Shown: positions 95 through 6,800 of the stretch, piece after piece
Layout: every line of letters begins with the position of its first letter
Numbering within the stretch: position 1 is the first letter of the stretch
Translations under genes and position numbers: made by a program
The notes under the pieces: model-generated
What the model saw: only the letters and a program-made list of their open reading frames with translations
Database searches by the model: none
What the model was told of the DNA's origin: nothing
Source: a virus
Lineage: Duplodnaviria > Heunggongvirae > Uroviricota > Caudoviricetes
DNA length: 6,800 bases
Direction: 5' to 3' (one strand)
IMG/VR virus record: IMGVR_UViG_2740892422_000007

Positions 95-656
95 GCCATT
101 CAATATCCGGTGCAGTTGATGTATCAACACGGTTCAGCAACACCCGATACTTTTTCCAGGCTTCCAGCAACAAGGTTTCTTCCTCCGTTGCGATCTCCAG
201 ATCCACAGCATCCTGAAGCGGCGCTATATGCTCACTGGCTATCTGCATCAGGCTGTTTTTTGTTTCTTCCGCCTCCCGGATCCGGAACAGTTTTTCTGCT
301 TCCGTATCCTTCACCCAGGCTGTGCCGTTCCACTTCTGATATTCCCCTCCCGGCGATAACCAGGTAACATTTTCCGGTAACGGACCGAGTTCAGAAATAA
401 ATAACGCGTCGCCGGAAGCCACGTCATAAACCGTTTTACCCCGATGATCTTCAACGAGATGCCACGATGCCTCATCACTGTTGAAAACAGCCACGAAGCC
501 TGCCGGAATATCTGGCGGTGCAATATCGGTACTGTTTGCTGGCAGACCTGTATGAGGCGGAATATATGCGTCACCTTCACCAATAAATTCATTAGTTCCG
601 GCCAGCAGATTATAAATTTTTATGGTCCGTGGTTGTTCACTCATTCTGAATGCCAT
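90..656 (-). CDS. tfa: Tail fiber assembly protein Tfa (lambda-like), 188 aa, 3' end truncated by IS1
   Basis: ORF-track translation [48 protein letters not shown] matches lambdoid Tfa proteins from memory. The start overlaps the stf stop (TAATG on the minus strand at 654-658). The last native codon is W (96-98); the final R codon (93-95) and TGA stop (90-92) are supplied by the IS1 end. Confidence 0.88.
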
Positions 657-896
657 TACGCAAGCCTCACAATATAGTTAAATGCGATGTTTTTGACGGT
701 GTTTTCCGCGTTACCAGCAGCGTTAACGGTGATGGTATGTCCATGTGAACCAATCGCAACGGAGTGCGTATGAGCACCAATACCGACAGTATGTGCGTGT
801 GCACCTGCGCTTGCAGCAGTACCCGATACAGAGTGCGTATGAGCGCCTGCAGAAGAAGTGTTAACACTGTATTTAGAATAATCAGGTGATCCACTT
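656..896 (-). pseudogene. stf: Side tail fiber Stf, C-terminal ~80 codons only; 5' portion deleted
   Basis: The C-terminal 80 residues of track ORF 656..1132 read [81 protein letters not shown], with the repeated G(A/S)H(T/A)H motif and a terminal [11 protein letters not shown] typical of lambda Stf. The upstream 78 residues of that ORF are an out-of-frame read across the terminase fragment. No start codon or RBS exists for this fragment. Confidence 0.8.
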
Positions 897-1799
897 CCAG
901 ATCCCGGTCTTTTCGCAGATATAACGGGCATCAGTAAAGTCCAGCTCCTGCTGACGGATGACGCAGGCATTATGCTCACAGAGATAAAACACGCTGGAGG
1001 GATCATCCGGCATCCATTTGAGGCCAAACGGCGTCTCTTTGTCGCCAAATTTAAGGTACTGCTCCTTCCCGCAGTGCGGGCAGGCAACATGAAAACGCAT
1101 AAAATGCGGGGATTCACTGGCTGCACGCTCAATCTGGCAGGTGCCTCTCACTTTGGGCGTGGAGCCACGGATGGATTTTGGCCAGACAGAGCCTTCAATA
1201 CGCTTATCGCCCAGGAACGTCGGAGAGCCTTCCTGTTCAATATCCTCATCAAAGGCAGCAAGTTCATCATAACCCGCCACATCCACTGACTTTTCACGGT
1301 AGTTTTTTGCCGCTTTACCGCCCAGGCACCAGAAGCCACGCCCATTGGTGAAACGCTTCATGGTGAGCGTGTTATCCCGGTGCTTTTTGCCATACCACGG
1401 GGCCAGCGCCAGCAGCGAAGGAATATCACGGATGGTCGGCTCAACGTGGGTTTTCATAAAGTTCTCGGCATCACCATCCGTCGGCAACCAGATAAGTGTG
1501 TTGCGCTGCTTATGCTCTATGAAGTAGGCATAAACACCCAACAGCATTTTGGAATAACCAACACGGGCAGACTTCACCACATTCACCTCGCGGATGTAGT
1601 CGCTGCCCATCGCATTCATGATGGCCCGCTGAAAGGGCAGTGTTTCCCAGCGCCCTTCCTGGTATGCGGATTCTTTCGGGAGATAGTAATTGGCATCCGC
1701 CCATTCAACGGCGGTCTGTGGCTCCGGCCTGAACAGTGAGCGAAGCCCGGCGCGGACAAAATGCCGCAGCCTGTTAACCTGACTGTTCGATATATTCAC
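882..1799 (-). pseudogene. A: Terminase large subunit gpA, N-terminal 301 codons fused to 4 junk codons (KWIT) and a stop; nuclease and portal-binding C-terminal domains absent
   Basis: Translation MNISNSQVNRLRHFVRAGLRSLFRPEPQTAVEWADANYYLPKESAYQEGRWETLPFQRAIMNAMGSDYIREVNVVKSARVGYSKML is near-identical to lambda gpA from memory. Similarity ends after ...YICEKTGIW (codon 301, about base 897). Full-length gpA is about 641 aa. The 5' end overlaps nu1 by 26 nt, as in lambda. Confidence 0.88.
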
Positions 1800-3447: not shown

Positions 3448-3560
3448 GCATTGGTTTAATAAAAACCATCAACAATTGTGATTTAGATATTCGGAACCAT
3501 TCAAATATAACAAAACCCCGTAAAAACGAGGTTTATGGATAAATTTTATTATTGAATACA

Positions 3561-3734
3561 TCAGATTAAATTAATCTTGACATCATAGCTTTCAAGACCC
3601 GTCATTTTTTCCCGTGCGGTAAACTGAATACTGGTAACTTCTTTCCCGGTCTTTTTCTTAAGTTCAATAATTTTTTTTGTTATATATTCAGAAATATCTG
3701 CTTCTGCTTTTATTTTTAAGTTTTCAATATTCAT
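3561..3734 (-). CDS. Gns-family small protein (GnsA/GnsB-like), 57 aa; absent from the supplied ORF track
   Basis: Hand translation of the minus strand: MNIENLKIKAEADISEYITKKIIELKKKTGKEVTSIQFTAREKMTGLESYDVKINLI, then TGA at 3561-3563. Start ATG at 3732-3734 is preceded by AAGAGGAAA. Length and the REKMTGLESYDVKI segment match GnsA/GnsB as recalled. Confidence 0.7.
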   Translation of the reverse strand: MNIENLKIKAEADISEYITKKIIELKKKTGKEVTSIQFTAREKMTGLESYDVKINLI

Positions 3735-3905: not shown

Positions 3906-4061
3906 TCAACTCAAGAGCCTTATTGCTGCTTCCAGAATTTCTTCTGAAGTAACATGTCGATCCGCGGCTACATAAATGACTTTATGATCTCCGGTCAGAG
4001 ATGGAAACCCTGCGGCCATTACAGTAAGGTGTGTTTTTTCGCCATTTGGATATTCACGCAT
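3906..4061 (-). CDS. Small hypothetical protein, 51 aa from the ATG at 4059-4061 (MREYPNGEKTHLTVMAAGFPSLTGDHKVIYVAADRHVTSEEILEAAIRLLS); in-frame extension possible to ATG 4134-4136 (76 aa) or the track's TTG at 4176-4178 (90 aa)
   Basis: Track ORF 3906..4178, which starts at TTG inside the cspI terminator hairpin, so that start is unlikely. The internal ATG at 4061 has GGAG about 11 nt upstream. The segment 4100-4136 contains A7 and T8 homopolymers. No family recognised. A 51-aa size fits the small ynfN-type gene found between gnsB and cspI in Qin, but that is memory of gene order only. Confidence 0.4.
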   Translation of the reverse strand: MREYPNGEKTHLTVMAAGFPSLTGDHKVIYVAADRHVTSEEILEAAIRLLS

Positions 4062-4180
4062 GATGGTGTTAACTCCAGTCATCGCTGGCACTACCACTGC
4101 TGGTTCAGAGTTAAAAAAAACTATGATTTTTTTCATGATGTTACCGTAGTATGTGAGTATCCATCGAATAGACACCAAGC

Positions 4181-4200
4181 AAAAAAGCTCCCGAAGGAGC
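4181..4200 (-). terminator. Rho-independent terminator downstream of the cspI-like gene
   Basis: GC stem GCTCC / GGAGC with CGAA tetraloop at 4187-4200. On the minus strand it is followed directly by TTTTTT (plus A6 at 4181-4186). On the plus strand it is followed by an interrupted T-rich run, so it may act in both directions. Confidence 0.55.
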
Positions 4201-4407
4201 CTTCATTTTCACTTTTTTAAATCCAACGACAGACGGCTGGCATTTAAGTATTGTGAAATATTATCAAATGTAATCATCATTGATTTACAAAAGATACATT
4301 TTGCCCCGAAAGGATTCATGTCAGAAACATCAAAAGATGATGTTCTATACTGGGAACCATGACAACACGGGCATCTAAAGTGAATATGGTTTGTAATATT
4401 GTCTACC

Positions 4408-4620
4408 TCAAAGCGCCACTACATGAACAGCGGCAGGACCTTTAGGTCCGTTCTCAATACCAAATTCAACTTCCTGATTCTCAGTTAATGTTTTGAAATC
4501 GTTGCTCTGAATTGCTGAGAAATGGACAAACACATCTTTGCTGCCATCTTTCGGCGTGATGAAACCAAAACCTTTTTCAGGGTTAAACCATTTCACTAAA
4601 CCAGTCATTTTGTTAGACAT
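4408..4620 (-). CDS. cspI: CspA-family cold shock protein, 70 aa, CspI-like
   Basis: Translation [70 protein letters not shown] carries the RNP1-like KGFGFI and RNP2-like VFVHF motifs. The [14 protein letters not shown] variant and the lysis-gene neighbourhood match Qin CspI as I recall it. Start context AAAGGTAATAATT-ATG resembles the cspA leader. Confidence 0.85.
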
Positions 4621-4735
4621 AATTATTACCTTTTGAAGAAATTAGCCCTTGGGCAGAATGGTCCGAAAAAAAATATCAGAGAGAAAAACCAACAAGGAAA
4701 TCTCAAGAGGTACAAATAATAAAATTATAACAATG
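4621..4735 (-). promoter_or_regulatory. Candidate cspI promoter (extended -10) and roughly 100-nt AT-rich 5' leader
   Basis: Minus-strand TGTTATAAT (plus 4724-4732) is a TGn-TATAAT extended -10. A long leader is characteristic of cspA-family genes. No experimental support. Confidence 0.4.
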
Positions 4736-4982
4736 ACTGCTTCAGATAAATTTGTAACAAACCAGAACACCATTAACGCATGATTAACCACCCATAGCAA
4801 GGATTACTTTTGTAAAGAAAAACACAGCAATGAAAGAATAGCTTTATTTATTAATAAAACGTGTCATTCTGATTAAGACCTTTTATCTTACCCTTAAGAT
4901 TTCAGGAATTTTGGCTCATGGAAGAGTCCTTTTTATTTAAATTTTACATTCCGCGATGTAAATGTTCCGATTTAATATTACC

Positions 4983-6006
<1,024 letters not shown>

Positions 6007-6010
<4 letters not shown>

Positions 6011-6322: not shown

Positions 6323-6538
6323 TTACTCTCCTCTCGCAGCCTTACGCCTGTCTTCTTTAATCTTGAAATAAAGATTTGTCAGATACGTCAGCAGGCCAAA
6401 AACCAGGCTACCCAGCACACCGATTGCAGCCCACTGTGACGGAGTTACTTTATCGAGTAACTGCAATGCCCAGAAACCAGCATTACCCGCCGATGTGCCA
6501 TAGGCAACACCTGTTGTTAACTTATCCATTGATTTCAT
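6323..6538 (-). CDS. S: Class II pinholin (S21-like) with dual-start motif, 71 aa (68 aa from the second start)
   Basis: Real start is [71 protein letters not shown]. Two in-frame ATGs at 6536-6538 and 6527-6529 are separated by K-S, RBS GGGGTGAGG lies upstream, and there are two transmembrane segments with a basic C-terminus. The track ORF's 25-residue N-terminal extension is a run-on, not coding. Confidence 0.85.
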
Positions 6539-6706: not shown

Positions 6707-6800
6707 GGTGATGCTGCCAACTTACTGATTTAGTGTATGATGGTGTTTTTGAGGTGCTCCAGTGGCTTCTGTTTCTATCAGCTGTCCCTCCTGTTCAGCT
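6707..6800 (+). mobile_element. IS1 terminal fragment (left-end inverted repeat plus first 13 codons of insA); element continues rightward out of the window
   Basis: GGTGATGCTGCCAACTTACTGAT... begins at 6707. The 94 bp are the exact reverse complement of bases 1-94. GTG-initiated VASVSISCPSCSA reads on the plus strand from 6762. Confidence 0.85.

Follow-up and report, generated by a model that had tools for sequence, protein, structure and literature searches.

Promoter, leader, and transcription unit of the cold shock gene cspI in a Qin-type prophage fragment of Escherichia coli

How is a cold shock gene that lies among the late genes of a prophage transcribed, and does it serve the phage or its host? 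The locus analyzed here is part of a 6,800-nucleotide stretch (termed the window herein) of the virus record IMGVR_UViG_2740892422_000007. An initial annotation had described a CspA-family gene at this site as an independently transcribed insert, with a candidate extended −10 promoter (TGTTATAAT, positions 4732 to 4724 on the minus strand) and an intrinsic terminator of its own, and had interpreted it as cargo that benefits the host. This observation was partly confirmed, and its interpretation is partly supported. We consider it very probable that the gene is cspI of a Qin-type lambdoid prophage and that it opens a small block of cargo genes, located between Rz and cos and oriented like the late genes, with a cspA-type promoter starting transcription at about position 4765, a thermometer leader, and a transcription unit comprising cspI and ynfQ.

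The window covers part of a defective E. coli prophage, lambdoid and of the Qin type. Its minus strand carries the holin gene (6323 to 6538), ydfR (listed between holin and lysozyme), the lysozyme gene (5477 to 6010), and Rz (4983 to 5480; DUF2514), followed 3′ of Rz by cspI, ynfQ, ynfR, ynfN, and gnsB. Beyond this block lie the plus-strand genes ydfO and ynfO and then, again on the minus strand, the cos site (cosN, GGGCGGCGACCT, 2497 to 2508), Nu1/nohA (1774 to 2319), a terminase fragment fused to tail fiber remnants, and tfaQ. The cold shock gene had therefore been placed correctly between Rz and the cos-proximal genes. In the fused segment (656 to 1799, minus strand), the sequence passes from an N-terminal piece of the terminase large subunit to tail fiber repeats with GAHTHS motifs; the fusion is a deletion scar, typical of Qin, that took out all head and tail genes. 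Within the tfaQ coding region, positions 115 to 313 (minus strand) match IS009, a candidate small-RNA family of Rfam, with 221.5 bits. Experimental RNA 3′ ends of E. coli K-12 were taken from the Term-seq data of Adams et al. 2021 (PMC7815308, M63 sheet) and mapped to the window by exact string matching. One of them, at 4935, coincides with a weak hairpin and T-run on the plus strand (4913 to 4935); it lies about 50 nt past the stop codon of rzpQ, and the source table classes it as antisense to rzpQ.

Between positions 4100 and 4900, the window matches Qin DNA of E. coli K-12 MG1655 exactly, save for an additional T in ynfN, and from the cspI promoter to the terminator the identity is 100%. 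The K-12 annotation gives the same order (cspI b1552, ynfQ b4724, ynfR b4749, ynfN, and gnsB), and the neighborhood is alike from tfaQ to essQ. Since the two sequences are nearly identical, published K-12 results on cspI apply directly to this sequence. In contrast to K-12 Qin, the fragment is cut by its ends and lacks cspB, cspF, Q, pinQ, and pR′. These ends (1 to 94 and 6707 to 6800) carry one and the same IS1 end as perfect inverted copies. The 6.6-kb Qin fragment is thus flanked by inverted IS1 elements, with junctions at 94/95 and 6706/6707, the first of which cuts off the 3′ end of tfaQ. Both junctions together were found in no complete E. coli genome, nor in an exact search of species-representative genomes. 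A 9.5-kb linear Klebsiella oxytoca “plasmid” (NZ_CP069920.1) consists of the ynfO-hokD stretch of E. coli Qin, with 100% identity, and is probably a contaminant or a stray or misbinned contig.

The cold shock gene is cspI itself. Its open reading frame (4408 to 4620, minus strand) encodes 70 amino acids and contains the cold shock domain PF00313 (108.4 bits versus a cutoff of 27); the translation shows the RNP1 (KGFGFI) and RNP2 (VFVHF) motifs, and with them the CspA-family signature. Both the gene and its flanking DNA are identical to those of b1552, and the neighboring genes agree as well, as expected of an orthologue; the protein is 79% identical to CspG. A Shine-Dalgarno sequence (AAGG) lies at 4629 to 4632, and the initiation region (AAAGGTAATA..ATGTC..AAAATGACTGGT) aligns with those of cspA, cspB, and cspG. 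Both the family assignment and the cspA-like translation initiation context of the initial annotation were thereby borne out.

Three independent lines of evidence place the transcription start of cspI at about position 4765. The Rfam cspA thermoregulator (RF01766), a model built on the cspA mRNA, matches from 4766 to 4381 with 112.8 bits (gathering score of 78; E value of 4.8e-29), and in this alignment the cspA start would correspond to 4765. The cspI 5′ untranslated region (UTR) is given as 145 bases in PMC6719143, which cites the primary work, and counting 145 bases from 4620 again leads to 4765. The promoters of K-12 cspA, cspB, and cspG match the cspI upstream region column by column (TTGC[AT][TA], a 17-nt spacer, and TG[gc][CG]TTAAT); the paralogues have TTGCAT or TTGCTT, 17 nt, and TGgCTTAAT or TGcGTTAAT. 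The primers used by Adams et al. to clone the cspB and cspG leaders start at the homologous GTCGGTTTGA, at the position equivalent to 4766. The Cappable-seq and Kim 2012 supplements contained no start site entries near cspI. The start at about 4765 thus probably holds, resting on a secondary citation and on homology.

The putative cspI promoter (4772 to 4810, minus strand) consists of an AT-rich block (4804 to 4810), a −35 element TTGCTA (4795 to 4800), a 17-nt spacer, and an extended −10 element TGcGTTAAT (4772 to 4780) that lies 7 nt upstream of the inferred start. The hexamers were assigned by homology, following the assignment in the cspA promoter. A sigma-70 promoter of the cspA type would thus start cspI transcription at about 4765, and the correct promoter would lie about 48 bases upstream of the one originally proposed.

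What, then, is the motif TGTTATAAT? It is present where it was reported, as a perfect extended −10 element, and such an element is able to work without a −35 element. If it were the cspI promoter or a second one, transcription would start at about 4717 and yield a leader of about 97 nt without the 5′ arm of the long stem; in models at 37°C, this shorter leader would be slightly more open, with a mean unpaired probability of 0.43 for the Shine-Dalgarno-AUG region versus 0.31. The pattern TGNTATAAT, however, is expected 0.24 times per window and occurred at least once in 42 of 200 shuffles, which is chance level. A usable −35 element is missing (the sequence at that place is AATTTA), and the alignment with cspA, cspB, and cspG reveals no counterpart. 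With a start at about 4765, the motif falls at +34 to +42 of the leader, downstream of the start rather than upstream of the UTR. The initial annotation had itself made its promoter dependent on a transcript initiating within 4700 to 4740; the published 145-nt leader, as cited secondhand, puts the start outside this range, in agreement with the Rfam match and the paralogue alignment (4765 to 4766), and therefore the promoter assignment fails by that measure. Conservation is uninformative here, because the leader is nearly invariant: among 2,144 E. coli records, nearly all show an identity of 95% or more (two are at 90 to 95%), and the motif is unchanged in phage mEp460. Taken together, we regard a promoter at 4724 to 4732 as very unlikely.

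The simplest account of the motif is that an AU-rich strand complementary to AAUAAUUAUG easily resembles TATAAT. In minimum free energy (MFE) models covering the leader and 80 nt of the coding region (4765 to 4540; ViennaRNA), TGTTATAAT pairs with codons 2 to 4 at 37°C and with the AUG region at 10°C. It would thus belong to a leader strand whose pairing partner is the AU-rich initiation region, and not be a promoter. The only experimental RNA end mapped to the motif is a 3′ end rather than a 5′ end: a Term-seq end at 4727 (+39), inside TGTTATAAT, with 36,172 reads. This end may mark a short leader RNA, a Rho site, or a processing site; a similar 3′ end, dependent on Rho, is present in the cspB leader in the same data set. 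An intrinsic terminator at +39 was ruled out, as the RNA upstream folds at only −1.9 kcal/mol and forms no stable hairpin. Sigma-dependent pauses occur about 10 nt downstream of a −10-like element and not inside it, a geometry that likewise rules out the possibility that such a pause generates the end at 4727.

The 145-nt leader itself (4621 to 4765, minus strand) belongs to the cspA thermoregulator family: the score of 112.8 bits, well over the gathering score of 78, identifies a long, structured cspA-type 5′ UTR, as in the cold-inducible csp genes. The model is matched full length, from the start through the coding region, except that its terminal hairpin (model positions 398 to 425) is absent, because ynfQ follows cspI at that place. 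The leader is shorter than that of cspA (145 versus 159 nt) and, in the alignment with cspA, cspB, and cspG, lacks part of the cold box; a cold box and a downstream box of cspI are described in PMC6719143. The function of the cspI leader as an RNA thermometer has been demonstrated (PMC13271884). At 37°C, the leader and first codons form a long stem-loop in which the Shine-Dalgarno sequence and the AUG are buried, and at low temperature the leader refolds and lets translation proceed. In our MFE models at 10°C, the ribosome-binding site did not come out as open, and the mechanism as described here rests on the published probing rather than on these folds. A review also lists cspI among the Rho- and cold-controlled genes (PMC12360218).

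The intrinsic terminator that the initial annotation had assigned to cspI is real, but it follows ynfQ. The element (4181 to 4204, minus strand) consists of a stem (4183 to 4204) with the GC core GCUCC/GGAGC (4187 to 4200) and a U-tract (4181 to 4186), and its hairpin has a predicted free energy of −12.5 kcal/mol (z score of −2.2). The K-12 Term-seq end at genome position 1638226, with 35,795 reads, corresponds to position 4179 of the window, two bases beyond the U-tract; the terminator is therefore real, with a GC-rich hairpin, a U-tract, and a 3′ end at the tract. It is conserved in phages mEp460 and Tritos. With respect to the genes, it lies 208 nt past the cspI stop codon and only 8 nt past that of ynfQ. 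The latter gene (4209 to 4397, minus strand) begins 10 nt after the cspI stop codon with an ATT start and encodes a small CxxC protein of 62 amino acids; K-12 annotates it as b4724, RefSeq calls it a “cold-shock protein,” and it has been listed as cold shock induced and coinduced with cspI (PMC11228462). The primary transcript would thus comprise cspI and ynfQ and end at the intrinsic terminator (3′ end at 4179), with a length of about 587 nt.

Transcription probably does not always stop there, and a single-gene insert, as originally proposed, does not describe the locus: the unit includes at least cspI and ynfQ, with probable read-through to ynfR and ynfN. The 21-amino-acid ynfR open reading frame (4141 to 4206, minus strand), whose translation is identical to the published YnfR, spans the terminator hairpin, and a YnfR-SPA fusion rises strongly after cold shock (PMC6001520). 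Downstream, ynfN (3906 to 4136, minus strand) is intact with 76 amino acids; it has eight T's on the gene strand in the run at 4113 to 4120, whereas K-12 MG1655 has seven and a truncated YnfN of 51 amino acids. Upon azidothymidine (AZT) treatment, cspI, ynfQ, and ynfN were induced 6.5-, 5.9-, and 5.8-fold, with similar SspA dependence (PMC11228462). This coinduction, together with the rise of YnfR in the cold, implies read-through of the terminator at 4181 to 4204, such that part of the polymerases would continue into ynfR and ynfN and termination within ynfR would be regulated or leaky; coinduction is no proof of one transcript, and both the bicistronic cspI-ynfQ transcription and the read-through are inferred. 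The block ends with gnsB (3561 to 3734, minus strand; 57 amino acids; PF08178, 117.7 bits), which is followed by a terminator found in the terminator scan (3513 to 3534, minus strand; −11 kcal/mol; z score of −3.6) with a Term-seq 3′ end at 3510. Csp proteins reportedly act as antiterminators (Bae et al. 2000), and Csp-mediated antitermination is a plausible cause of the read-through into ynfR and ynfN. A more far-reaching version, in which TGTTATAAT is functional, either as a weak second promoter for a thermometer-less cspI mRNA or as the site that defines a 39-nt leader RNA, and in which the ynfR-internal terminator is a cold-regulated, Csp-dependent read-through switch to ynfR-ynfN, seems to us distinctly unlikely.

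The five genes cspI, ynfQ, ynfR, ynfN, and gnsB form a cold-related block that is a paralogue of the chromosomal cspG-ymcF-ymcE-gnsA block of K-12, with the same gene order and promoter type. As ynfQ does after cspI, ymcF follows cspG at a spacing of 10 nt with an ATT start, and the proteins are 79% (CspI/CspG), 66% (YnfQ/YmcF), and 67% (GnsB/GnsA) identical. The two blocks differ in that YmcE is unrelated to YnfN and that overlapping open reading frames in the cspG block leave no room for a terminator or ynfR between ymcF and ymcE.

Among deposited lambdoid phages, Tritos, PhiR42_1, mEp460, 2H10, HannyBb, and PhiR63_1 carry the cspI block (91 to 99.9% identity) at their right genome ends, following Rz, and it is present in 2,154 of 5,426 complete E. 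coli genomes. Lambdoid morons such as lambda bor, known from the work of Hendrix and colleagues, are expressed from the repressed prophage. Like bor-type morons, the cspI block has a promoter (by homology), genes, and a terminator between Rz and cos, the position it also occupies in Tritos and mEp460, and it occurs in only some genomes; it differs in being oriented with the late genes (bor is opposite) and in containing several genes and a leaky internal terminator. The block fits the moron pattern, and the idea of cargo is therefore supported.

Whether the block is independent of late transcription depends on the state of the phage. In K-12, where Qin is defective, cspI is cold induced (Wang et al. 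1999, cited by PMC6719143, PMC7858274, and PMC13271884), and on the strength of these citations the promoter and cold induction attributed to the gene stand. The claimed independence would hold for the lysogen only: cspI lies on the late-gene strand, and in an intact phage, by analogy with lambda, Q-modified polymerase would probably transcribe the block as well. One could go further and suppose that cspI has in practice no promoter of its own and depends on the phage late transcript or on read-in from upstream, since it shares the strand of S, R, and Rz, no minus-strand terminator was found between Rz and cspI, and a review lists a putative Rut site that precedes the cspI promoter (PMC12360218), which implies read-in transcription. 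The cold induction reported secondhand for the defective Qin of K-12 and the conserved cspA-type promoter argue against this, as does the fragment itself, in which the holin gene has just 168 nt of upstream DNA before the IS1 end; with Q and pR′ missing, the block has no promoter to rely on but its own. We therefore regard dependence on outside transcription as extremely improbable.

As to whom the block serves, deletion of cspI alone has little effect, and combining it with deletions of cspA and cspE into double and triple mutants gives a much stronger growth and 16S rRNA synthesis phenotype at 15°C (PMC12562117). The host benefit proposed in the initial annotation thus has some published support, as the triple cspA/cspE/cspI deletion is far worse than the single ones. 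The block might also serve the phage, for example, in late transcription, RNA unfolding, or lysis in the cold, which would be compatible with its being a cold-regulated cargo block. Isolated lambdoid phages retain it at an unchanged place within the late operon, Tritos, like Qin, has cspB as another csp gene located between Q and S, and the antitermination activity said to reside in Csp proteins would suit such a role. Its promoter and leader, however, are of the host cold-regulated type, no phage genes are annotated in the 2.7 kb examined at the paralogous cspG-ymcF-ymcE-gnsA block, the published deletions show that the host needs such genes for growth at low temperature (PMC12562117), and no phage phenotype was found reported in the literature. 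We consider a benefit to the phage rather unlikely.

The gene cspI, its cold induction, its thermometer leader, its control by Rho, and its location in a prophage are already known and published, and nothing found here departs from that. As a discovery, the locus is thus of low significance. The useful result is a corrected map of a known locus, in which the promoter would lie at 4772 to 4800, the proposed −10 element would be leader RNA, and the transcription unit would include ynfQ.
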